Below are positions 3,564-63,642 of a stretch of DNA of 64,000 nt, piece by piece. Source of the DNA: Promethearchaeota archaeon Loki_b32 (GTDB lineage Archaea; Asgardarchaeota; Lokiarchaeia; Sigyniarchaeales; SOKP01); contig NJBH01000011.1 of assembly GCA_005223125.1 (NCBI GenBank), positions 32,001 through 96,000 on the forward strand. The letters run 5' to 3'. The stretch's first letter is position 1. Each line of letters starts with the position of its first letter. A program made the translations under genes and the position numbers. The notes beneath the pieces were generated by a model. It searched no databases. It had not been told where the DNA came from and was given only the letters and a program-made list of their open reading frames with translations.

Positions 3564-4025
3564 ATCCCTAAGGACGCATTAAAGTTTTTTCACGCATATG
3601 TTAAAGAAATGATTGATATAGGTGGGAGTAATTTACCAAAAGCAATTTCTACTAAATCTGGGTCAAAACTGGGAAAATTATATAAAGAAAGAGGATTAAC
3701 TGTAGATATCGGGATTGCTTTAAAACAAGTATATTCTGCACTTAAAGCAAAACCATTGATAAAAAAACTAAATGATGATACATATGAAGTGATTATTAGA
3801 TACTCAAAAAAATTCTGCCCTATAGGAGGGGCTCATAATCCCTCCCGAGCTCCGATTTTTCAAGAGAATATTTGTATTCCTTATACACGGGGTTTTTTAA
3901 ATGAACTTTTTCCACAATTTACGTTTGAAGCAGAAATTTTAAATTGTATACCACTTAATAATCAACATACTTGCCATTACATTCTAAAAATCAAAAATAA
4001 GAAGAATACAGATCACATAACTTGA
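3564..4025 (+). CDS. V4R/MetOD1-like Cys-containing small protein, paralog 1 of 3 (probable ATC start)
   Basis: FCPIGG...ICIPY...NC...TC; IPKDALKFFHAYVKE upstream of ATG 3609 aligns to paralog N-termini; GAGGTGA at 3553-3559. Confidence 0.65.
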   Translation: MPKDALKFFHAYVKEMIDIGGSNLPKAISTKSGSKLGKLYKERGLTVDIGIALKQVYSALKAKPLIKKLNDDTYEVIIRYSKKFCPIGGAHNPSRAPIFQENICIPYTRGFLNELFPQFTFEAEILNCIPLNNQHTCHYILKIKNKKNTDHIT

Positions 4026-4106
4026 CTTGAAGGTTTTTTCTAATTCAATTCATGAAATTTTTCTTTAAAAATCTTAGAAACGCTCCTTTCCTTTTTTATT
4101 ATCAAA

Positions 4107-4151
4107 TAAATAATTCTGATAACAAGTCTTAAATAATTTAAAGTGGAGATT
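4107..4151 (+). promoter_or_regulatory. Duplicated upstream element (second copy at 4781-4825) in front of paralogs 2 and 3
   Basis: 40/45 identity between the two copies; contains a TTAAATA TATA-like box. Confidence 0.6.
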
Positions 4152-4196
4152 AATCTAGATTTTTCTTAATTATTTTAAAATATACATCTCAAACTT

Positions 4197-4655
4197 ATGT
4201 CAAAAAATAAGGATTCTTTAAAGTTCTTTCAAGCATACATTAAAGAAATGATCGATATTGGAGGAAAAAATTTACCAAAAGCCATCTCTAGTAAATCGGG
4301 GGCAAAATTAGGAAAAATGTATAAAGGAAGAGGATTAACTTTGGATATTGGAGCTGCATTAAAACAAATTTATACTGCATTGAATGGAAAACCAGTGATA
4401 AAACAATTAGATGAGAATAGATATGAAGTAATCGTAAAATTTGCAAAGAAATTTTGTCCAATCGGGGGTTCAAACAATCCATCTCGAGCTTCAATTTTTC
4501 AAGAAAACATTTGTATTCCCTACATGCGAGGATTTTTAAATGAGATTTTTCCCCAATTCACGTTCGGAGAAGATATCTTAAATTGTATTCCCCTGAATAA
4601 TCAAAAGACTTGCCATTTTATTTTAAAGATCAAAAATAAACAACATATCAGTTAG
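4197..4655 (+). CDS. V4R/MetOD1-like small protein, paralog 2 of 3
   Basis: Very similar to 3564-4025, same four cysteines; fold assignment is inference. Confidence 0.65.
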   Translation: MSKNKDSLKFFQAYIKEMIDIGGKNLPKAISSKSGAKLGKMYKGRGLTLDIGAALKQIYTALNGKPVIKQLDENRYEVIVKFAKKFCPIGGSNNPSRASIFQENICIPYMRGFLNEIFPQFTFGEDILNCIPLNNQKTCHFILKIKNKQHIS

Positions 4656-4868
4656 TTATCATGTAAATTTTACAAGGATAATAATTTTATAGTAAAATAA
4701 AATTAGGGTATTTCCTAATTCACTTTATAAACTCTTTTATTTAAATCTTGAAAGCTCTAAATATTTGATTTATTTTCAATTAAATAATTCTTATAAAAAG
4801 TCTTAAATACTTTAATGTTGAGATTTAACTATATTTTACTTTATCAATAAAATAAACACAATAATAAA

Positions 4869-5327
4869 ATGCAAAAAAATAGAGATGCTTTAAAATTCTT
4901 TCAGGCGTATATTAAGGAAATGATTGATGTCGGTGGTATTAATCTTCCTAAATCGATCTCTGCCAGCTTAGGTGCCAAATTGGGTAAATTATTAAAACGA
5001 CGCGGAATATCTGGATTAGAGAATACTCTAAAAAGAATATATAATGTTCTTAATGCTAAGACTCAGATAAAAACAATAGATGATAATACTATGGAAATAA
5101 CTTTGCGTTATCGATCACGTTTCTGTCCTCTTGGAGGAGAATATAACCCTGATAGGGCTGAACTTATTCAAAATACAATATGTATCCCTTATACAGTAGC
5201 AATTTTGAATATTTCTCATCCTGAGTATAAATATAGTGCCAAAATAATGGAATGTATTCTTAATTCCAATCAAAAAAATTGTAAATATCGACTAGTAAAA
5301 GAACTGAAAAGCATTGACAATAATTGA
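4869..5327 (+). CDS. V4R/MetOD1-like small protein, paralog 3 of 3
   Basis: LKFFQAYIKEMIDVGG, FCPLGG, ICIPY, EC...NC retained; most diverged copy. Confidence 0.65.
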   Translation: MQKNRDALKFFQAYIKEMIDVGGINLPKSISASLGAKLGKLLKRRGISGLENTLKRIYNVLNAKTQIKTIDDNTMEITLRYRSRFCPLGGEYNPDRAELIQNTICIPYTVAILNISHPEYKYSAKIMECILNSNQKNCKYRLVKELKSIDNN

Positions 5328-5342
5328 GGAGGTTTTAAAAAA

Positions 5343-5650
5343 CCTGAACCTCGATGTCAATCCTAATATTATGACCAAATTATCTCATACCCCTCCACTG
5401 CCTTAACCATGAAGCGTGAACACCTATAGTTACGAATGCTTCCTCCCGGACCTGTTCGGGTTTCTAATTACGAGCTTATACCTTTCCTACAAAAGGTACT
5501 ACTCTGACACCCACCATCATGGGGACAGCTTCGACGGAATACAAGATTGGATAATATTACTCATGAGAACTGAATTCAGGCAATTTCCACTATTGAGCAT
5601 TTTGTGGTCGACCCAGCAAGGGGCTTCAAGCATTGCCCAAGTTGCTCGAT
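5343..5650 (-). ncRNA. ffs: Archaeal signal recognition particle (7S) RNA
   Basis: Minus strand has helix 8 CAGGTCC-GGGA-GGAAGCA (5437-5454), helix 6 TACCTTTT-GTAG-GAAAGGTA with GNAR loop (5479-5498), CCTGAATT/GGTTCAGG long-range pairing, ~310 nt, T-run after the 3' end; ends approximate. Confidence 0.88.
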
Positions 5651-7067: not shown

Positions 7068-8174
7068 ATGTCAGAAGATATAGTATATGTGGATGCTAAC
7101 ACTCTTGAAAATTTTATGAGAGATGTTTTTATAGGACTTGGTGTCCCAGAGGAAGATGCTACTATCATTGCTGATGTATTAATTACATCAGATAAAAGAG
7201 GTATAGATTCACATGGGATACAGCGGTGTAAAATGTATTATGACCGTATTAAGGAAGGAATTTATGAAGCAATTACAAAAATTGATATTATAAAAGAGGG
7301 CCCTACTACAGCTCTTTTAGATGGAAATTGTGGAATAGGTCATGTAATAGCTCATAAGGCAATGAAGATGGCAATCGAAAAAGCAAAAAAGTATGGATTA
7401 GGAGCAGTAGCAGTAAAGAATTCTACTCATTTTGGCATTGCAGGCTATTATTCGCTTATGGCAATAGAAGAAGGTATGATTGGGATAACAGTTACCAATG
7501 CAAGACCCTCTATACCCCCCACATTCGGATGTGAACCAATGTTAGGAACAAATCCTTTGACTGTTGGAGCTCCTACTGATGAGAAATTCCCTTTTCTAAT
7601 TGATTGTGCCACATCAATTATTCAAAGAGGAAAAGTTGAAATTAACGCTCGGATTAATAAACCACTTCCAGAAAATACTGTAATAGATGATAAAGGTGAG
7701 ATCATGACTGATCCTAATAAGATATTAGACGAAATGCTAGAAAGAAAAGCATCTTTATTGCCATTAGGAGGAAAAGGTGAAGAAACAGCGGGTTACAAAG
7801 GATATGGTTATGCAACAGTTGTAGAACTTCTTTCAGCCGCCTTACAAGATGGAATTTACTTGCGAGATACACTAGGAATAGTTGAAGATAATCAAAAAAG
7901 ACTAAAGGTAGGTCATTTTTTTCTAGCAATTAATGCAGAAAGCTTTATTGGAGGGGATTCATTCAAAAAAACTGCTGGTAACATAATGAGGGATTTGAGG
8001 GGGTCAAGAAAGATTCCTGGAGTTGGGCGGATTTACACAGCGGGAGAAAAAGAATACATAGCAGAAAATGAGAGAAAAAAATCTGGTATCCCTCTTAATA
8101 AAAGTCTACAAAATGATATTAAAATCATGCAAAACGAACTCGGGCTAAAAAAACATAAATTTCCTTTTTCTTAG
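7068..8174 (+). CDS. Ldh_2-family (class 2 malate/L-lactate/sulfolactate) dehydrogenase
   Basis: RGIDSHG, NSTHFGIAGYY, LGTNP, DCATS, LLPLGG, YKGYG motifs. Confidence 0.92.
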   Translation: MSEDIVYVDANTLENFMRDVFIGLGVPEEDATIIADVLITSDKRGIDSHGIQRCKMYYDRIKEGIYEAITKIDIIKEGPTTALLDGNCGIGHVIAHKAMKMAIEKAKKYGLGAVAVKNSTHFGIAGYYSLMAIEEGMIGITVTNARPSIPPTFGCEPMLGTNPLTVGAPTDEKFPFLIDCATSIIQRGKVEINARINKPLPENTVIDDKGEIMTDPNKILDEMLERKASLLPLGGKGEETAGYKGYGYATVVELLSAALQDGIYLRDTLGIVEDNQKRLKVGHFFLAINAESFIGGDSFKKTAGNIMRDLRGSRKIPGVGRIYTAGEKEYIAENERKKSGIPLNKSLQNDIKIMQNELGLKKHKFPFS

Positions 8175-8298
8175 TTTTTATTAGTATTAAGGAATCTATA
8201 TTACTTTTTGTATAATCCAAGAAAACAATTACATATTTCTAAATTATTATTTTTAACAAGTGCTAAAATTTTTATATTAGTTAACTAATCTATAAGTT

Positions 8299-8461
8299 AT
8301 GGGCAAAAATTTTGTTGAAAAGCCTTGTATAATATATAATGGCTCCTGTCAATCCCCTGGATTTTTGTCTTTTGGTTGTTGTGTAATTAATTACACACAA
8401 GAATAACCTACTCTGCCTTTTGAAATTTTATGCCTCTCATTGAGGCTTGTTGGCAGGAGCT
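8299..8461 (+). ncRNA. Candidate structured RNA / micropeptide transcript, copy 1 (sORF 8299-8406)
   Basis: Closing stem 8341-8352/8450-8461, hairpins 8380-8397 and 8432-8446, 22-nt core 8355-8376 identical to copy 2, TTTATA at 8271. Confidence 0.65.
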
Positions 8462-8540
8462 ACCTTTATTAATTTGAACTTTAGAACTATTTTAAAGTTA
8501 AAAAAGAAGATCTAAATCTCTATAAACGCTATTATTATCT

Positions 8541-11411: not shown

Positions 11412-12142
11412 CTTTTACAAATCATTTAGTATTTTGTTATTTTAAATATACCATTTTTAATATTTTAATGATAACATGTTAAGAATTTAATGATAAAATT
11501 ATGGATTCTCCTATTTTAAATTAGTATTTAGAATTATAGAAGGGGAAAAAGATATCTTATGATGAAAGAATAGATTTTTAATATTTTAATTCAGAAATAT
11601 TTATTTCAAATCTAAATTACAACACTTTTGGTTTAAATATTAAGAAATTTACCAATAATATTGATTCTCTCCTTAATGTGATATAAAAATAATTTTTGAA
11701 AAAATAGAAATTGAATTTTATGATAAGATAGAACTAAAATTTATAATCCATATAAAGAAAATTAGAAAAGGCATTTTAACGAGTAAAGAACACTAAAATT
11801 AAAGATTTGAAAAAATGAACTAGCAATCCGTGGGAGATATATACTGTTCATTATAATATGGATTTCCCAAAGGAAGAATTTGTCTTAGAAAACATACCCC
11901 TCAGATATTGGGTTAATATTATCTAAGTGTTGGTGATAAACTTAGTTCCCAATATAGGCATTTTTTGACAGGTGATGATTAAAATGCAAAATTTCTAGTC
12001 ATTTACATTACTCACAAAAAACCACCCCTCAAAATTTATGAGTAGACGCTTTCTTTTCATCAATTATTTTTTGAGGAAAATGCATAAAAAGGGTAGTCCT
12101 CATTTTATGTTAATTAGGTAAATAAAAGAAGTGATCAAAGCA

Positions 12143-13367
12143 TTGGCGACATATAAAACACTTCAAGAGAGTGGACTATTCCCTACTATATCACATCTCA
12201 ATTGCGATATTTGTGGATCTTCTAATATTATAGAAAATCTTGAGGGATATGTGTGCCGGGATTGTGGAATTGTATTAGGAAATTCAAAAATTACAATACG
12301 ATAGACCTTATAATGAAGATTTAATCCAATATGCCAAGGGTGTAGGCAAAACACAGATAGGAACGAGGCGAGAAAGAATAATCTCGCCTCTTTCTATCAA
12401 ATTACAAAGAATAAACAAATACAATTCTATAACCACCAGTGAACGAGCAGTAATTGAGGGAGCCCGTATTGAAGTAGCGAGGATCTTTAATTATTTAGGT
12501 TTAGATGGATATGATGCTTTAAAAGAAATGGTTCTAGATAAGTTCAAAAAAATTAGAGCGAAATTTAGACAGGGTTCAAAATATAAAAACATAGAAAAGC
12601 TAGTTTCAATTACGATTTATTTCTGTCTTAAGCTTAGGAATGTATCTATTAATCCATACGAATTGATTGAAATTTCTAAAATTTCAAAAAAAGAGTTCAA
12701 TGATTTCATTTTGCAGCTTCAAAAGTTCTTACCAGAATATGGTGAACGTAATAGACAGGAATATATTTCCCAGAGAATTCTCGAAATTTCTGAACATTTT
12801 GATTTAGGAATGCCATTTTACTTTCTTTCGAAGAAGATTTTGTATAGGTTATGGCAAGGAATTAAAAATACAACTGATAATGTAGTTGCTGGATTAATAA
12901 GTTCAATCTCTATTTTATGTTCGTATAAAGAAAAGGTAAGTGTAAGTTCCATTTGTAATCGTTTAGGTATTAGAATGAGTACTGTCTAGGCACAGGTTAA
13001 GAAAAAGATTTTTCAGAGGTTTAAAGTTGTGGGATTTGTAAGTTTAATAAAATCGTCCGATTTCTTAGTGAAAATAATAAATAAATTAGGGATTTTAGAA
13101 GAACCAGGATTAAGAGATTAGGAAGATGGAGGAGAAATCATTCTCGGAAATGCTTCGAAAATATTTAATATTCATAATGATTTAGATTACTATTATTTTG
13201 CACTACCAGGAAAAGAAAAATACCCTATATTTCTTTTTCTTAAGGTTTATGATTCTCCGTTAGATTTTAATTATGAAAGACGTCCTAAAATTAAAGGTGA
13301 TTCATTACTCGATTTTGAATTATATAAGTATTATACATCTAAAGACCCTCCTTTATTAGGGATTTAA
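12143..13367 (+). pseudogene. Divergent TFB/TFIIB-like gene, disrupted
   Basis: Zinc ribbon CDICGS...YVCRDCGIVL, 1-nt insertion near 12278, cyclin-like helical repeats in 12528-12989, in-frame TAG at 12987 and about 13119, frame continues to TAA 13365-13367. Confidence 0.7.
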
Positions 13368-13487: not shown

Positions 13488-14183
13488 ATGGAAAACATCC
13501 ATATCCGTACAAGAAAAGATGAAGATGTAAAGAAATATCTCAAACCAATGTATATTTACAAAATTGGAGTCGATCTAACAAGTTTAATGGAAGACGTTTA
13601 TAAGTTAATAACTATGGTTCTCGAAGAACGATTACACTATCTTTCTCAGTTAAACTTTTTAGAAACTAAAGGAGAACATTTACATACTAATATCATACGA
13701 AAAGATTTACTCAAATTAAATACAGAGTTAGTAAGGCTATTACAGAGTAATGGGGATAAAACCGGAGTATATAGTGCCCTCTCTATCAATGCTCAAGCAT
13801 TAATCCTTTACCACATGCTAGAATTAGTAGAGCAACAAGGTTTAGATGTTTTATTAGATTATTTTATAAAACTTAGCAAGGATGCAAAAAAGAAAAATAG
13901 CTCAAAAGCTGCCAAGATATTAGCTTCTGATGGACGATTGCAAAGAATTTATTTAGAATTAAAAAAAAATGTTGAATTTTCTCCTGAAAACCTTATTCAT
14001 CCGAAGTATCATGTATTAGTTAAGATAATTTCAGAACAATTACAGAATAATCCCTCCTCTCGGATTTTAGTATGTGTAAAATTAAGAAATTCAGTAAAAA
14101 ATATCGTAAATAGACTAAAAGAAATAAAAACGATAAAACCAAAACGTTTTGTAGGTCAAGCAACAAAATTTTTACATATCTGA
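13488..14183 (+). pseudogene. Internal fragment of Hef/FANCM-like SF2 helicase
   Basis: HPK...RILV.VKLRNSV...RFVGQA (motifs IV/IVa) after the helical insert; Walker A/B and motifs V/VI absent. Confidence 0.8.
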
Positions 14184-14358
14184 AAAATAATCCTTTTTTG
14201 ATTGCTTCTTTTTGGATCTCACGTAGTTGAAATATTTTTCCTTCAAAAAGTACACGTAGAATACGCTTATCATTAATAAATTTAAAAATATCTCTGTTTG
14301 TGGAACATTCTATTTTTTCTTTCTCAAGTTTATCAGAAAAATCTCCTAGAGTTATTAT
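14179..14358 (-). pseudogene. N-terminal fragment of a Ski2/Hel308-like helicase
   Basis: IFQLREIQKEAIKKGLFFR is a Q-motif segment; similarity ends before the expected Walker A; AGGTGA at 14367-14362. Confidence 0.55.
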
Positions 14359-14368
14359 ATATCACCTA

Positions 14369-14671
14369 TTAGTATGGATTTGTCCATTTTTTCATAATTT
14401 CTGAAAACGTCTCTGAATCTCTCGATATCTCTATACTTTTAATGACTCCTATATTTCTAACTTTTAACTCTAAATTAATATAACAGATTAAACTATGAAG
14501 AGGTTCTCCATGTAAATGAATATGAGGGAAATATATATTCGGATTCCCTTGTTTTAAGATATAATATTCAATTCCAAGCTCAATTTCTTTATTACATAGC
14601 GGACATATAACCTTTTGTGCCTGTCGTTTAACTTTTCTGAGATCCTTAATTCTACCAAAAACGATAACGAT
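14369..14671 (-). CDS. Small putative zinc-binding protein (100 aa), missed by the ORF track, probable ATC start
   Basis: Open frame IVIVFGRIK...VICPLC...PHIHLHGEPLHSLICY...KVR...WTNPY*; in-frame TGA two codons before ATC; AAGTGA upstream. Confidence 0.65.
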   Translation of the reverse strand: MVIVFGRIKDLRKVKRQAQKVICPLCNKEIELGIEYYILKQGNPNIYFPHIHLHGEPLHSLICYINLELKVRNIGVIKSIEISRDSETFSEIMKKWTNPY

Positions 14672-14764
14672 TGTATATCACTTTCTATTTTTTATGAATA
14701 CAACAAATATCAAGGAAATTTAAAGGAAAAAAATATGAAAATATTCTTATTTTTAAGAAAAGGT

Positions 14765-14927
14765 CACTCCCGCCCCATTAACGCAAGTATGCGTCGAAAA
14801 TATTTTAGGAGGAGGGCGAAATCAGAGTGTAGAAAACTACACTACCAAAAGACAAAAATCCAGGGTATAGGGTGGGAGTGGAATTTATTTTAAATTCATA
14901 TTGAATATTCTTGAAAATTCTTGCCAT
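14765..14927 (-). ncRNA. Candidate structured RNA / micropeptide transcript, copy 2 (sORF 14805-14927)
   Basis: Closing stem 14880-14869/14776-14765, hairpins 14826-14843 and 14780-14795, 22-nt core 14844-14865, TATATAAA about 30 nt upstream of the ATG. Confidence 0.65.
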
Positions 14928-15038
14928 TACATGTATAATGAACTCAATTTAACATTTATATATGTTGTTTATAATTAGAAAATTCCAAGACTCTATTTTT
15001 TTCTTTATAAATACTAAGTTTAATCTTCATCAATACAC

Positions 15039-18000
15039 ATGACGGAACAAAATCTTCTAGAAAAGAAACAAAATCACAAAGATGAAAAATCTGATACCAT
15101 CAATTCTAGTGTATCTGAAAAATTACTTACTCCTAGTATTGTTAAAGAAGGATTTACAGTGATCAAAGGAATTGGACCTTCTGTGGCGAAAAAGTTGACT
15201 GAAGCTAAAATCGATTCAATAGAAAAGTTAGCACATCTCTCACCAAACACACTTACATCTTCAATTAATGGTATTGGTGTAGCGTCAGCTCAGAAGATCA
15301 TAAATGGCGCAAAGGGGCATTTATCTTTAAAAAAATTAAATGATTTTTCACCATCGACTGAAGATGATGATAATAACGAAATAGAGAGTTCTAAACTCGA
15401 AGTTTATAAAGAAACTAAAGATGATGACATTAATAAAAGCCATTCTAACGATCTGAAAGGACCTCAAGGAAGATCTAATCGATGGTTCGAAGATAAATTT
15501 AAAAAGTTAAAGACAGCAACATGGTACCCTCCGGCTAATTTAGCTCCAGATATAGAGATTATGGCTGAGGAATTATTAGAAGATGAAGAATTAATAGAGA
15601 TTAAAGATAGGGAGGAATTGAAACTGACAAGATTGGAGAGTGTTAGAAATTTTCTCGAATCAGATACAGGTGTACCGTTAATAGAATCAATAAAAAGACC
15701 TAGAGTAGATGAAATATCAATACATTTGGATGAACCAGCAGACTTTATAGAAAGTATGAATCATGAACAAATCAATAATTTAAAAGATAATATAACTACG
15801 ATTCTTGAATCCGGTGAATTTCACATTATTACAAGGCTTCCTTCATTAAAGCCTGTTTTTATGAGGATTGACTTATTAGCTTTAAAACTCATCAATGTTG
15901 ATGATTTCTTAGAATTAATCTGTATTATACCTGTAAAGATTTGTTCTTTAAAGGGACCTCTAATAGTCTCGGAAGATGACATTAGTTATCATCCACTAGA
16001 AGACTATGAAAAAAATATCCACATTGATAATCAATTATTAATTGGATTGAAGATGGTTAACCTAAAGTATATTTATCGATCACCTTTTTGTTTGTTTGGG
16101 AAATTTCTTGAGAGTCTTAATAATCATAAGATCTCCTATAGCTACACGTTAAAAAATCAACCAATTAACTATCATGAGTTCTATAAATTTGGATTAAAAC
16201 ACATTCATGAAAAATTAAAAGACTTTATTTTATTTAGTTCCGAGCATGGAATAAAAAGTGAAGCTGATGCAGAACAATGGCTTGGATATCGCTCTGGAAT
16301 GTGGTACAGCACATTAACACTTACCGTTAATTCATACACATTTAAAAAATCTATCAATGATTGTAATTTCGACCAATTGGAAGAAGATTTATCTAATAAA
16401 ATTGATACTCTCAGGGGGGCATTTAACTCAAACTTTCAAAATTATGAAATTGAAGATTTAAACTCACAGGTGTTAATATCGGGATACCTTTTTACTGCCC
16501 TGAAAAATAACTATTTTAGGCTAAACGGTTCACATCTTAATTATTTGATGGTTCAAGGAGCAAATCTTTCACCATTGACAACTATAGCGGATATCCTTAG
16601 AAAAGGAATTGATACAATGATAGCTGCTGAATTTAATACCCCATTATATTTAGAGAATTTTATAACCATAGGACATACGAGAAATACGGAAGTGTTAGAA
16701 AATGAAGTTAACTTTGGATTTACGAGAGAACAGACAAAAAATCTTTTAATTGTGAATGGTACGACAATAAGTAGGGATTATGCTGCCATGAAGATTGTCT
16801 CTGAATTAATAAAAGCTCAAATCCCTTCTTTGGTATTTGATTTTAATGGCACATGGTCAACCTTAATTAGCTATTTCAAAAATTCAGACTTTCAAAAAGA
16901 AATTTTGCATTTTAAATTAGGGAGTGCGTTTACAATAGATCCTTTAGTCTCTGATATAGCATATGATACTGATAATACCGGATTCCTAGAATATATGCTT
17001 GACGCTTATGGAATGGCTTTTAAAAAGGATCAAAGAATTATTGATATGTTTCGAAATACAATAAAGAAAAATCCTGGATTGGATCTTCCATCAATGAATT
17101 TAGATTTGCAGACTCAAAAAGATTGGGAAAAAAGCCCAATAAATGATTCATTACTGAATCTTTTTTCAGATTTCACTCAGCAAGATCTTACTTTTTTTCA
17201 AGGATTTCAAGGAGATATTAAAAATAAAATAACCAGTCATGATTTTGTTACCAATAATAAAACTGTTATTATCGACCTATCAATTATACGAGATCTTGAT
17301 AAGAAACTATTCTTTGTATTTCTAATTCTCTCAAAAATAATTCATTATATCAAAAATGATGAGCAATTTATCAAAAAAACTATTGTAATTCCAAATATTG
17401 ATATCTATTTTGATTCTCGCTATTTAGATCTAAAAATGAACTATGGAAAAATCAATTTATTTTTAGATCCCCTCATTGAACGCGAATTTGGCTTAATTTT
17501 TCTCGCAAACCAAATTAGGTATCTCCATCCCAATTTATTTAATTATTTTACTAACATCATGACATTCCGAGCAACAGATCATCGTGATGTTACAACTTTA
17601 GGCAGTTTGTTAAACCTGCAGGAGCTTGAAGGAATTGGGTATTATACACTAACCAGAAATCAGACCTATCAGATAAAATATCTAAAAAGCTTGAAGAATA
17701 ATGAAGTGATTGTAAGAAGAGATGATATCTACCAGCCTTTTCCGGCAATAATTGATTGGGAAGATATTAAAAAGATAAAAAAACTAACATATGAAGAGAT
17801 TGTACTATTTATGGAACAACATGGTTATAATTTAAAATATACTGAAAGGAAGATATTAGAACAAGCAAAAAAAACAATATTTGATATAGATTTAGGACAT
17901 TATATTTTATATTTAGAAGAAGTGATCAAGTTTTTAGATGAGGTACAGAATTTTGACCAAGTTGGGAATCTTTATGCTTCAAAGCTTAAAAAACAATTAA

Positions 18001-25550: not shown

Positions 25551-27488
25551 TTATTCCCCTGTAATTGCTCGTCTCCTTTTACGCAAAGCAAATATTGCTA
25601 TACCAACTCCTACTACACCGGCTATTGACACAACAATAATTACGATCATTATGACATTATCAGAAGGACCTGTATCCACTAATTCAACTATAAGTGTATT
25701 TTGTTCCTCAATATTATCTACTTCATCGATTGCTTGATACGAGATAAGAATATCGCCATATGTATATTGAGATAAGTTAAAGGGGGTACTATACTCAAAC
25801 CAATCGGAATCATTAAATTTATATCTAATCACAGACACACCAGATCCACCCCCATCATCAGCGGTTAATGTAAAAGTTGTCGATTTATTCACCATATTAG
25901 GTTCTTTATGTACAATGTATGATATCGATGAGGTTGGCGCAATAGTATCTTTACGGACAGTTACTTCAGCATACCCCTCATTACCTAAGGTATCATTCCC
26001 AGAGAATCTAATGGTCACCGTGCCATCTCCTTTCTTGTCCCATTCTGTTTGATTGATTATTCCAGTTAATCCGCTAAATATAATATTGGTTATTCCTCCA
26101 TCTAAAGTATACCAAGTAGTTTTTAATAACGGTTCAATAATGGAAATATTGAAGTTTGGGCTTACACTTCCAATAAATTCATTTGGAGTAGGAGAATTTA
26201 TTATAATGGTTGGAACTACATCGTCGATGAATGTATACATTATCTCATAATCGGTACCCCACGGACCAGCAGTATCATCATCCCACACCACATGAACGTT
26301 TCCTAGACTATCTACTGCAATTGAAGGGTAACCACTATAACCATCATTCCAATATACACCCCCAAATCCATCGGAGATCACTGTCGCATTAGACCACCCA
26401 GCTGAAGAAGAATAGTTCACATACATTATCTCTGAATCGGTACCCCATGGACCATCAGTATAATCATACCATACCACATGAACGTTTCCACTATTATCTA
26501 TAGCAATTGAAGGGCATTCACTCCAGCCATCATTCCAATATACACCCCCAAATCCATCCGAAATTACTGTCGCATTAGACCACCCAGCTGAAGAAGAATA
26601 ATTCACATACATTATCTCAGTATCAATTCCCCATGGACCATCAGTATAATCATACCATACCACATGAACGTTTCCATTATTATCCACCGCAATTGAAGGC
26701 CTCTCACTATTACCATCATTCCAATATACACCCCCAAATCCATCCGAAATTACTGTCGCATTAGACCATCCAGCTGAAGAAGAATAATTCACATACATTA
26801 TCTCAGTATCAATTCCCCATGGACCAACAGTAAGATCCTCCCATACCACATGAACGTTTCCATTATTATCAATGGCAATTGAAGGGTAATAACTATTACC
26901 ATCATTCCAATATACACCCTCAAATCCATCCGAAATTACTGTCGCATTAGACCATCCAGCTGAAGAAGAATAATTCACATACATTATCTCTGAATCGGTA
27001 CCCCATGGACCATCAGTATAATCATGCCATACCACATGTAAATTCTCGCTATTATCAATGGCAATTGAAGGGTAACAACTATCACCATCATTCCAATATA
27101 CACCCCCAAATCCATCCGAAATTACTGTCGCATTAGACCACCCAGCTGAAGAAGAATACTTTACATACATTATTTCATCATCGGTACCCCATGGACCAGC
27201 AGTAGGATCCCACCATACCACATGAACGTTTCCATTATTATCAATGGCAATTGAAGCGTCATAACTATAACCATCATTCCAATATACACCCCCAAATCCA
27301 TCCGAAATTACTGTAGCATTGGCATAATTCGAAGAACTTGTTTTAACAGTAATAGATTCACCAAAACCACCAATTTTATATGGAGGTTCCGATATATCAA
27401 ATTTAACTATCGAAAAAACACCGAAAATGAATACTAGATATATTAAAATAGATATGGATCTAACTTTATGTTTCATTTTTTTATTCAA
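25551..27488 (-). CDS. Membrane-anchored cell-surface glycoprotein with six 62-aa repeats (probable beta-propeller) and Ig-like stalk
   Basis: N-terminal signal/TM, repeats with NAT/NYS sequons, PTIIINSP and DTIAPTS Ig-like starts, C-terminal TM plus RKRRR. Confidence 0.8.
   Translation of the reverse strand: MNKKMKHKVRSISILIYLVFIFGVFSIVKFDISEPPYKIGGFGESITVKTSSSNYANATVISDGFGGVYWNDGYSYDASIAIDNNGNVHVVWWDPTAGPWGTDDEIMYVKYSSSAGWSNATVISDGFGGVYWNDGDSCYPSIAIDNSENLHVVWHDYTDGPWGTDSEIMYVNYSSSAGWSNATVISDGFEGVYWNDGNSYYPSIAIDNNGNVHVVWEDLTVGPWGIDTEIMYVNYSSSAGWSNATVISDGFGGVYWNDGNSERPSIAVDNNGNVHVVWYDYTDGPWGIDTEIMYVNYSSSAGWSNATVISDGFGGVYWNDGWSECPSIAIDNSGNVHVVWYDYTDGPWGTDSEIMYVNYSSSAGWSNATVISDGFGGVYWNDGYSGYPSIAVDSLGNVHVVWDDDTAGPWGTDYEIMYTFIDDVVPTIIINSPTPNEFIGSVSPNFNISIIEPLLKTTWYTLDGGITNIIFSGLTGIINQTEWDKKGDGTVTIRFSGNDTLGNEGYAEVTVRKDTIAPTSSISYIVHKEPNMVNKSTTFTLTADDGGGSGVSVIRYKFNDSDWFEYSTPFNLSQYTYGDILISYQAIDEVDNIEEQNTLIVELVDTGPSDNVIMIVIIVVSIAGVVGVGIAIFALRKRRRAITGE
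26235..27320 (-). repeat. Six tandem 186-bp coding repeats (last one partial)
   Basis: NATVISDGFGGVYWNDG...HVVW...GPWG.D.EIMY recurs every 62 codons with high DNA identity. Confidence 0.95.
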
Positions 27489-29075: not shown

Positions 29076-30215
29076 ATGGTAGAAAAAGCAATAGAACAAG
29101 CGCAACAACGTTCATCAGATGATATTCTATATATTAAAGCTGATATTCTCAAGAGTTTTATGAAAGATGTTTTTATAAGTCTCAAAGTTCCAGAACAACA
29201 TGCTGAAATTATTGCAGATGTACTTATAACATCAGATTTAGAAGGCATTGACTCTCATGGAATCCAGCGATGTAAAATGTACTATGATCGGATACGAGAG
29301 GGAATTTATAATCCTAAAACAGAGATAGAAATTGTTAATGATAACAAATCTACTGCCGTTATTGATGGAAAATGTGGTATGGGACATGTAATTGCTTATA
29401 AAGCTATGAAATTAGCAATTGAAAAAGCAAAAAAATACGGTCTTGGTGCTGTAGCAGTTCGCAATAGCACTCACTTTGGGATTGCCGGATATTATTCACT
29501 AATGGCAATAAAAGAAGGAATGATAGGTTTTGTTACTACAAATACACGACCATCAGTTCCACCTACATTTGGTGTTGAGCCAATGTTGGGTACAAATCCT
29601 CTAACATACGGAGCACCTACTGATGAGAGTTTTCCTTTTTTATTAGATTGTGCTACATCAATTATTCAAAGAGGTAAAGTGGAGGTTTATAATCGTATTC
29701 ACAAACCACTTCCAAGTGGAGTAATCATTTCTAATAATGGTAATTCTAAAACAGATCCTAATGTAGTTTTAGATAAATTGGTTAAACGTTCTGCTGCATT
29801 ATTGCCTCTAGGAGGCGAAGGTGAGGATACTTCTGGTCATAAAGGATATGGATATGGTACTTTTGCGGAGATCTTATCTTCAGCATTACAAGATGGAGTA
29901 TATCTTAAAGACACTGCAGGGGTCATTGAAGATGGTCAAAAAAAGTTAAAAGTAGGACATTTCTTCTTAGCTATTAATATCCAAAATTTCATTCCAATTG
30001 AGAAATTTCAGAATATATCTGGTAATATCATGCGAGATTTGAGAAGTTCTAAGAAAGCGCCAGGGAAAGAAAAAATCTACACTGCCGGGGAAAAAGAATA
30101 TAATACTGAAGCTGAAAGAAGAAAAAATGGTATTCCGGTAAATAAAAGCATACAAAAAGATATTAAAACTATGCAAAACGAACTGGGATTGAATAATTAT
30201 AATTTTTCATTTTAA
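29076..30215 (+). CDS. Ldh_2-family dehydrogenase, close paralog of 7068-8174
   Basis: Same motifs with long identical stretches. Confidence 0.92.
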   Translation: MVEKAIEQAQQRSSDDILYIKADILKSFMKDVFISLKVPEQHAEIIADVLITSDLEGIDSHGIQRCKMYYDRIREGIYNPKTEIEIVNDNKSTAVIDGKCGMGHVIAYKAMKLAIEKAKKYGLGAVAVRNSTHFGIAGYYSLMAIKEGMIGFVTTNTRPSVPPTFGVEPMLGTNPLTYGAPTDESFPFLLDCATSIIQRGKVEVYNRIHKPLPSGVIISNNGNSKTDPNVVLDKLVKRSAALLPLGGEGEDTSGHKGYGYGTFAEILSSALQDGVYLKDTAGVIEDGQKKLKVGHFFLAINIQNFIPIEKFQNISGNIMRDLRSSKKAPGKEKIYTAGEKEYNTEAERRKNGIPVNKSIQKDIKTMQNELGLNNYNFSF

Positions 30216-56682: not shown

Positions 56683-56760
56683 ATTTTATTATTTATAGCT
56701 ATTCTAATTTAACAATCAGTAATATTAATAATTCTAACCGTATATATCAAATTTACTCTT
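56683..56760 (+). repeat. 78-bp direct repeat, left copy (includes the likely vps4 TATA box)
   Basis: 71/78 identical to 60792-60869, ungapped. Confidence 0.9.
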
Positions 56761-56964
56761 AGAAAGAAAGATAAAATATTCAACATTTATATTATTGACA
56801 TATTTTAAATATAATGGAAGAAAAAGAAAAGAATTTACGCATGAACCTTTCTAGAATTCTGTTGTCAATTTAACAATTAAGTTTTATGGAATTATAAAAT
56901 GTAATTATATATTTATATTTTTGAATTACCTTTATTATTTTAAAAGACAAATATAAGAAGTGAA

Positions 56965-60585: not shown

Positions 60586-60792
60586 ATGCATAAAATTTTC
60601 TTTCGGAATCAAGGTCAAGGAAAAGAGATCTCATTATCTGAAGATCATCTTCTAAATATACTTATCAATGAGTTTCAATTTGCTAATGATATTGAAATTA
60701 ACTTATGTTTGTTCGGGAATCTAGGGAATGAACTTTTTCTTGACCCTCACCTAGAAAGGAAATTAGAAAATGAAATTAAAGATAGAAGCTGA
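60586..60792 (+). CDS. Small hypothetical protein
   Basis: 68-aa ORF whose stop abuts the right direct repeat. Confidence 0.45.
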   Translation: MHKIFFRNQGQGKEISLSEDHLLNILINEFQFANDIEINLCLFGNLGNELFLDPHLERKLENEIKDRS

Positions 60793-60869
60793 TTTTACTA
60801 TTTATAGCTAATCTTATTTAACAATCAGTAATATTAATAGTTTTATCAGTATATATCAAATTTACTCTT
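60792..60869 (+). repeat. 78-bp direct repeat, right copy
   Basis: 71/78 identical to 56683-56760. Confidence 0.9.
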
Positions 60870-60961
60870 TAAATGAATGAGAATAAAGAATGGTCTCCAA
60901 AAAATTAAATACCCATCATAGCATTTATATATTATATAATTACTAATTAGATTTGATAAAT

Positions 60962-63570: not shown

Positions 63571-63642
63571 GCGCTCTTAGTATAGTGGTTAGTATGCCAG
63601 GTTGCCAACCTGGCGACCCGGGTTCAATTCCCGGAGGGCGCA
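63571..63642 (+). tRNA. tRNA-Gly (GCC), intronless, CCA not encoded
   Basis: Acceptor GCGCTCT/AGGGCGC, anticodon arm CCAGG-TTGCCAA-CCTGG, T arm CCGGG-TTCAATT-CCCGG. Confidence 0.97.

Follow-up and report, generated by a model that had tools for sequence, protein, structure and literature searches.

Two small reading frames in a Lokiarchaeal genome overlie copies of an uncatalogued, structured RNA family

INTRODUCTION

Two short segments of the genome of Promethearchaeota archaeon Loki_b32 (AT rich, with 30% GC, and 95.5% complete) share an identical 21-nt core, and the question raised by this locus is whether that core is kept as part of a small protein or as part of an RNA. Both segments lie in the 64,000-nt window, by which we mean the whole stretch of DNA that was analyzed. 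A first-pass annotation had taken them for genes of a leaderless micropeptide containing PGFLSFG, switched by pairing between the 5' end and the core, with the second copy possibly controlling a zinc-protein/hel308 operon in cis. Our comparison of homologs gives a different answer, namely, that both ORFs are open by chance and overlap a folded RNA gene. Each copy of this gene is likely transcribed independently as a noncoding RNA that belongs to a multicopy Lokiarchaeal family and acts in trans. The refutation of the peptide, a helix between leader and linker, an RNase P-like end signature, homologs in a sister family, and a viral copy are new here.

RESULTS

An RNA family with covarying helices and an invariant core

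The element is an RNA gene of ~120 nt in which a closing stem of 12 to 14 bp (P1) surrounds a single-stranded core, a hairpin (P2), a pyrimidine linker, and a second hairpin (P3) (Table 1). P1, P2, and P3 all covary in the covariance model. To avoid selecting on the core, we also fetched 90 regions by the neighboring gene alone; the ancestral fixed site was filled in 75 of them. Of the cells in the resulting alignment, 96.5% are paired, and 20 of the 23 pairs have changes on both sides; none of 500 shuffles reached this level of pairing, and slid controls gave 30 to 52%. The 19-nt core is identical in 71 of the 75 orthologs. G.U pairs far outnumber A.C mismatches (47 versus 2 in alignment A3), and this excess places the element on the strand that the first-pass annotation had read. 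Two orthologs at the ancestral site (L289 and L298) carry an extra hairpin inserted within the core, which implies that the core is bipartite.

The core was found in all 36 near-complete genomes of the family and in 127 of the 135 overall, while the reversed-pattern control gave at most 1 match. Copy number ranges from 1 to 17 per genome, and Loki_b32 carries seven copies, including one that is 5' truncated and one that is decayed. Homolog records are mostly from Promethearchaeota. The RNA family is real and is uncatalogued in Rfam and in the literature searched: Rfam 15 returned no family above the gathering threshold and none at E-value thresholds either, and no description of the family was found in the published literature that we searched.

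Table 1. Coordinates of the element, its parts, and adjoining signals (window positions unless a viral record is named)
Feature	Position	Strand	Remark
Copy 1 BRE/TATA-like promoter	8262..8277	+	Conserved in copy-1-type homologs
Copy 1 35-codon ORF	8299..8406	+	Not conserved
Copy 1 5' leader motif	8301..8313	+	Pairs with core or linker/P3 junction (8423-8434)
Copy 1 RNA body	8341..8467	+	Fold z = -5.4; covariance model E 1e-23
Copy 1 P1	8341-8353/8449-8461	+
Copy 1 core	8355-8375	+
Copy 1 P2	8381-8396	+
Copy 1 P3	8432-8446	+
Copy 1 ACCUUU tail		+
Operon's separate TATA box (zinc protein/hel308)	14717..14726	-	Downstream of RNA; at filled and empty orthologous sites alike
Copy 2 P1 3' arm, A-C-C, and U-run tail	14757..14778	-
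Copy 2 hairpin P3	14780..14795	-	Covariation
Copy 2 pyrimidine-rich linker	14796..14826	-	Leader partner in other subfamilies
Copy 2 40-codon ORF	14805..14927	-	Not conserved, judged chance
Copy 2 hairpin P2	14827..14842	-	Covariation
Copy 2 invariant U-rich core, Sm-site-like	14845..14865	-	Ortholog identity
Copy 2 P1 5' arm (closing stem)	14867..14880	-
Copy 2 5' leader motif GGCAAGAAUUUU	14914..14925	-	Predicted transcription start; able to pair with core
Copy 2 TATA-like box	14954..14965	-	Predicted from sequence; TATA-to-leader-motif spacing kept in homologs
AT-rich stretch with copy 2 TATA-like box			Common to divergent gene at 15039
Viral copy	L352 1503-1655	-	Inside same-strand gene run

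The reading frames are not conserved

Both ORFs exist as the first-pass annotation had described them (35 and 40 aa), and PGFLSFG is indeed present in both. Its occurrence does not go beyond chance: the heptapeptide is shared because the 21-nt core is identical in the two copies and stop free in all three frames. Among 129 nonredundant copies, ORFs that start at an ATG 40 nt or more upstream and run through the core read it in the PGF frame in 13, in the LDF frame in 14, and in the WIF frame in 7, so that family-wide the PGF frame is on a par with the others. A PGF ORF of any kind occurs in only 6 of 23 copy-1-type homologs. The copy-2 site is more favorable to the peptide, with some ATG-started PGF-frame ORF in 10 of 13 copies, yet these ORFs start anywhere from -22 to -130 and have unrelated N termini, and a close ortholog (L199) whose leader is almost the same loses the PGF frame. 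The spacer between leader motif and P1 varies from 23 to 53 nt with no mod-3 bias, and the hairpin insertions split the core. As coding sequence, the core showed no synonymous variation among the 75 orthologs (the 71 identical ones aside, 2 have insertions). Homologs thus retain the core without retaining the ATG or the frame, and this is the outcome by which the first-pass annotation itself had proposed to judge a conserved leaderless micropeptide. Neither that claim nor the related one of a type I toxin or translation switch survives it. Its caveat that the constraint may act on the RNA rather than on the peptide is supported.

The neighboring operon has its own TATA box

As had been pointed out, the zinc-protein gene follows copy 2 at a distance of ~95 nt and on the same strand; copy 2 is oriented away from the gene at 15039 and toward the zinc-protein ORF and the 5' fragment of hel308. 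Control of these genes in cis is contradicted by the operon's own TATA box and by the many loci at which the operon stands without the element: ~13 of 30 orthologous zinc-protein/hel308 sites lack it, and the TATA box downstream of the element is kept. Nor does the element hold the fixed position in the leader of a cotranscribed gene that would be expected of a cis attenuator or 5' UTR element. Neighboring genes are found in all four orientations; in 37 of 128 cases, copy 1 among them, the gene downstream of the element is convergent.

The genes beside copy 2 have peculiarities of their own. The zinc-protein gene (100 codons; ORF 14671-14369, minus strand, within window 14369-14685) has no ATG, and most of its 30 orthologs have GTGAT, a few bases, and then ATC-GT, which suggests a conserved ATC/ATN start behind a Shine-Dalgarno (SD)-like word. 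Within window 13488-14361, hel308, on the minus strand, ends after ~60 codons at ~14179 and meets the end of a truncated plus-strand helicase fragment (PF21210, Hef/FANCM-like). The assembly does not contain the remainder of hel308, which points to either a misassembly or a deletion.

A leader that can fold back onto the loop

The observation that each ATG shortly follows a TATA-like box is borne out, in that a TATA-like box lies 31 to 33 nt before the 5' motif across homologs. The leader motif G[GA]CARRAAU occurs in 17 of 129 leaders and in 0, 0, and 0 cases in three control windows. We rejected the idea that it is a generic promoter element, since only 1 of 204 TATA-like sites has the motif at +33 and that one is copy 1. 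A second leader type, AAAAUAGGG, which pairs with the linker, is found at this position. Either motif is found in 70 of 200 copies, and about two thirds show neither.

Pairing of the 5' segment with the core, as first proposed, is possible in both window copies (11 to 12 bp including G.U, at -10.6 and -9.8 kcal/mol) but is not significant against shuffled leaders (z = -1.4 and -0.6). The predicted 5' end is complementary to the loop across the closing stem, as had been claimed; covariation supports the linker/P3 junction as its partner, not the core. The covarying leader-linker pair is C-G in 12 copies, U-A in 28, U-G in 2, and C-A in 0, and TAGG is present in the leader of 55 of 151 copies whose linker contains CCTA versus 2 of 49 without it, although the pair changes only twice on the tree and is by itself not significant. 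In copy-1-type RNAs, leader and linker are both replaced, GGCAU leaders co-occur with UUUAUGCC linkers, and the leader makes 10.0 Watson-Crick pairs with the linker versus 7.3 with the core. Leaders at the copy-2 site pair better with the core than with the linker, but an invariant core cannot covary.

When leader helices are modeled as nested folds, their median cost relative to P1 is 7 to 9 kcal/mol. Only window copy 1 is nearly isoenergetic, its P1-open leader-core fold lying within 0.6 to 1.6 kcal/mol of the P1 fold; such switching is seen in 1 of 29 copies, the median penalty being 9.3 kcal/mol. In predicted nascent transcripts, a leader helix forms in 39 of 39 linker-type and 18 of 29 core-type copies. 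Given this cost and this presence in nascent transcripts, the leader helices do not amount, in these models, to a conserved thermodynamic switch; they are transient or pseudoknotted. We consider it somewhat more likely than not that a leader helix is functional in at least one subfamily.

Ends that resemble an RNase P substrate

The element is bounded by A-2 and U-1 before P1, by G+1 at its start, and by C, W, C, C, Y, U, U at its 3' end. In alignment A3, these ends are highly conserved (A-2 in 68 of 70, U-1 in 60, the G+1/C pair in 69, C74 in 69, and C75 in 58), with A76 in only 2 of 70, and AU/G (the slash marking the putative cut) recurs in several sister-family copies. RNase P recognizes U-1, the G+1/C pair, and RCCA, the latter by pairing with GGU in P15 (PMC11143913). 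An RNase P RNA with GGU in its P15 region is present in the host. The leader, U-1, the G+1/C pair, and the long helix are found family-wide, although copy 2 of the window is without AU/G, and the element has no T-loop and mostly no terminal 3' A. Substrates of RNase P other than tRNA include pre-4.5S RNA and the phage C4/CI RNAs. The element resembles them in having a 5' leader, U at -1, a G+1/C pair, a long helix, and 3' N-C-C, and it differs in having no terminal A, no T-loop, and a body unrelated to signal recognition particle (SRP) RNA. Cleavage of the precursor by RNase P is a proposal that we would rate at somewhat under even chances.

Homologs in a sister family and in a virus

Diverged homologs occur in a sister family, where DNA matches were found in 11 of 14 genomes and the same architecture was checked in 10 loci. 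UUUUGUCUUUU is the only long invariant word kept across both families. Outside the two families, a covariance-model search scored 42 candidates per genome in other Asgard classes. A complete virus of 224.8 kb (IMGVR_UViG_3300029288_000001) carries one copy (E 2e-9) in a short intergenic gap; a search of this virus for an Sm gene found none. A diverged copy (L070 1478-1592, minus strand) sits beside a ParB-like/DNA-methyltransferase gene on a contig binned as Saccharibacteria, which is probably a misbinned mobile element. A core-like match at G272 6008148 and the viral matches L348, L349, and L351 were set aside as chance matches in coding DNA. The sister-family genomes with homologs include complete single-contig genomes, probably also of cultured strains, and these make expression, 5' processing, and protein partners testable. 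Loci homologous to the element include G272 C1 2878163-2878299 and 3151866-3151991 and one on G269 C1 near 1198600.

DISCUSSION

A leader-masked, processed, and protein-bound RNA that acts in trans is, in our judgment, the probable explanation overall. Transcription would start ~31 to 33 nt after the TATA box and give a leader of 25 to 55 nt, the first ~12 nt of which would fold back during synthesis onto the loop (the linker/P3 junction or, in some subfamilies, the core). RNase P would cut at AU/G at the foot of P1, aided by the 3' W-C-C tail, to leave a ~120-nt mature RNA with its core exposed. The exposed core would be bound by a protein that recognizes its sequence, for which an Sm-like (SmAP) ring is the most plausible candidate, and the particle would act in trans.

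Readings based on translation have to contend with the frames. The first-pass model of a PGFLSFG micropeptide switched by its own 5' end now seems scarcely credible, its ORFs and the near-isoenergetic fold of copy 1 notwithstanding. A different translated product is conceivable: a structured mRNA might encode a hydrophobic peptide of 12 to 19 residues from an AUG at the foot of P1, with an SD-like leader (AUAGGGA) silenced by the CU-rich linker in the manner of a type I toxin, or a ribosome might initiate there whatever the frame. An ATG does lie at -25 to -15 in 88 of 129 copies versus 12 to 29 in control windows, it is present in 62 of 75 copies at the ancestral site with rare GTG/TTG variants, and the leader-linker helix covers the SD-like word. 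At one orthologous site, however, the frame of this ATG is LDF in 38 copies, WIF in 23, and PGF in 1, with no ATG in 13; variation is greater at the second base of this ATG than at the first (AAG, AGG, and ACG in 10 of 70 versus 2 of 70), unlike in start codons; it opens only 4 codons in some sister-family copies; and silent sites in the core are invariant. These points render such a peptide improbable, and the conserved AU/G before P1 together with W-C-C after it appears to agree with RNase P processing more closely than with a start codon. Type I toxin mRNAs and leader-peptide attenuators are multicopy and highly folded, with an SD-like word that pairs with a CU-rich stretch. The element shares these traits and differs in that neither a peptide nor a frame is conserved, no antisense gene was seen, and no downstream operon is fixed.

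Two further readings dispense with translation. The idea that the element is a small RNA that binds mRNAs or some other RNA by base pairing, through its CU-rich, anti-SD-like linker or its core, draws on the exposed CCCUCCUCC linker, on the 16S rRNA 3' end of a relative (GGAUCACCUCC), and on the GTGAT SD-like word of the neighboring operon. It is nevertheless unlikely, for complementarity to rRNA does not exceed that of shuffles, few long genomic matches exist besides the copies themselves, and the core is constant while the copy-1 subfamily has a different linker and the sister family has one that forms a hairpin. The variable copy number, the many sites that are specific to a lineage, the copies that are truncated or decayed, the occurrence of empty sites beside filled ones, and the viral copy would all suit a nonautonomous mobile or single-stranded-DNA repeat (MITE- or REP-like) with P1 as its terminal inverted repeat; against this are the one site fixed across the family, P1 changes that are compensatory or to G.U on one strand, the promoter and leader that accompany the copies, and the lack of a recurring cluster of transposase-like neighbors, so that we consider it very improbable.

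Several known RNAs were also compared with the element and rejected. Antisense pairing to 16S or 23S rRNA was no better than in shuffles (the 16S sequences being those of relatives, as no 16S rRNA gene is present in the assembly). Canonical 5S, SRP, and RNase P RNA genes are encoded elsewhere, so the element is not a divergent form of these, and a tRNA/tmRNA scan found none at the element. Y RNAs are similar in size, long terminal stem, pyrimidine-rich loop, and multiple copies, and the element differs from them in having no bulged-C Ro site; no TROVE/Ro60 gene was found in the 95.5% complete genome. Retrons, bridge RNAs, hammerhead and HDV ribozymes, and SECIS elements were dismissed on a by-eye comparison, their motifs or partner genes being absent.

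If the leader-masked RNA is indeed bound by a protein, its core offers a clue to the partner. The core shows the single-stranded A-U(n)-G site beside a hairpin that characterizes the Sm class. The U7 Sm site is AAUUUGUCUAG and the spliceosomal one is AAUUUUGG, and the Drosophila U7 sequence is tabulated as AAUUUGUCUUGG (PMC12360213). Against the U7 consensus, the core is U7-like, with longer U runs and with U as the base after G. What the element has in common with U7 and other Sm-class snRNAs is a single-stranded A-U(4-5)-GUCU-U(n)-GG followed by a hairpin, Drosophila U7 being close to the core; it differs in being archaeal, in having both ends closed by a long stem, and in that no guide or target pairing was found, and its Sm binding is a prediction. 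Archaeal SmAPs bind oligo-U (PMC4500138). With the RNAs that they bind, the element shares exposed U-rich tracts and a genome with Sm-family genes (three in Loki_b32), and it differs in that no described SmAP ligand has its fold, its own binding being predicted. U-rich motifs come to resemble Sm sites easily, and an Sm-like partner is a tentative suggestion that we hold to be rather unlikely. We further consider it a long shot that the element is an RNA dedicated to Sm rings in Lokiarchaeia, that RNase P matures this RNA, with its U7-like site, from a self-masking leader, and that one of the viruses of Lokiarchaeia has copied it; such an RNA would be an analogue, or a pre-eukaryotic relative, of the Sm-class snRNAs. 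Eukaryotes have their closest relatives in the Asgard archaea, for which the literature searched describes no dedicated Sm-site RNA. As a covarying, near-universal RNA whose U-rich loop is invariant, the element provides a concrete candidate for a ligand of Asgard Sm-like proteins.

OTHER FEATURES OF THE WINDOW AND GENOME

The assembly has two 23S rRNA genes of very different score, at C48 89955-93418 (3,464 nt) and C68 17319-21347 (4,029 nt). An archaeal SRP RNA lies at window 5341-5643 on the minus strand (E 2e-15); it falls under the Rfam gathering score, so that a default scan misses it. A tRNA-Gly(GCC) lies at 63571-63642 on the plus strand. Two ORFs at 12131-12989, one zinc-ribbon and one cyclin-fold-like, resemble on visual inspection the parts of a TFB-like gene that has been split or frameshifted; the cyclin-fold-like ORF had no Pfam match.

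Repeats occur at several places in the window. Three tandem paralogous genes of ~150 aa lie at 3569-5327, spaced by 639 and 672 nt, and five tandem 186-nt (62-codon) repeats lie at 26235-27278 within the minus-strand ORF 25551-27488. A gene for an Ldh_2-family dehydrogenase (7068-8174) has a paralog 22 kb away at 29076-30215, 71 to 77% identical in DNA. Two coding regions share a 28-nt inverted match (374-401 and 2649-2676) and are probably paralogous genes on opposite strands. Finally, a 92-nt intergenic direct repeat is found at 56683-56774 and 60792-60883, the two units being 87% identical.
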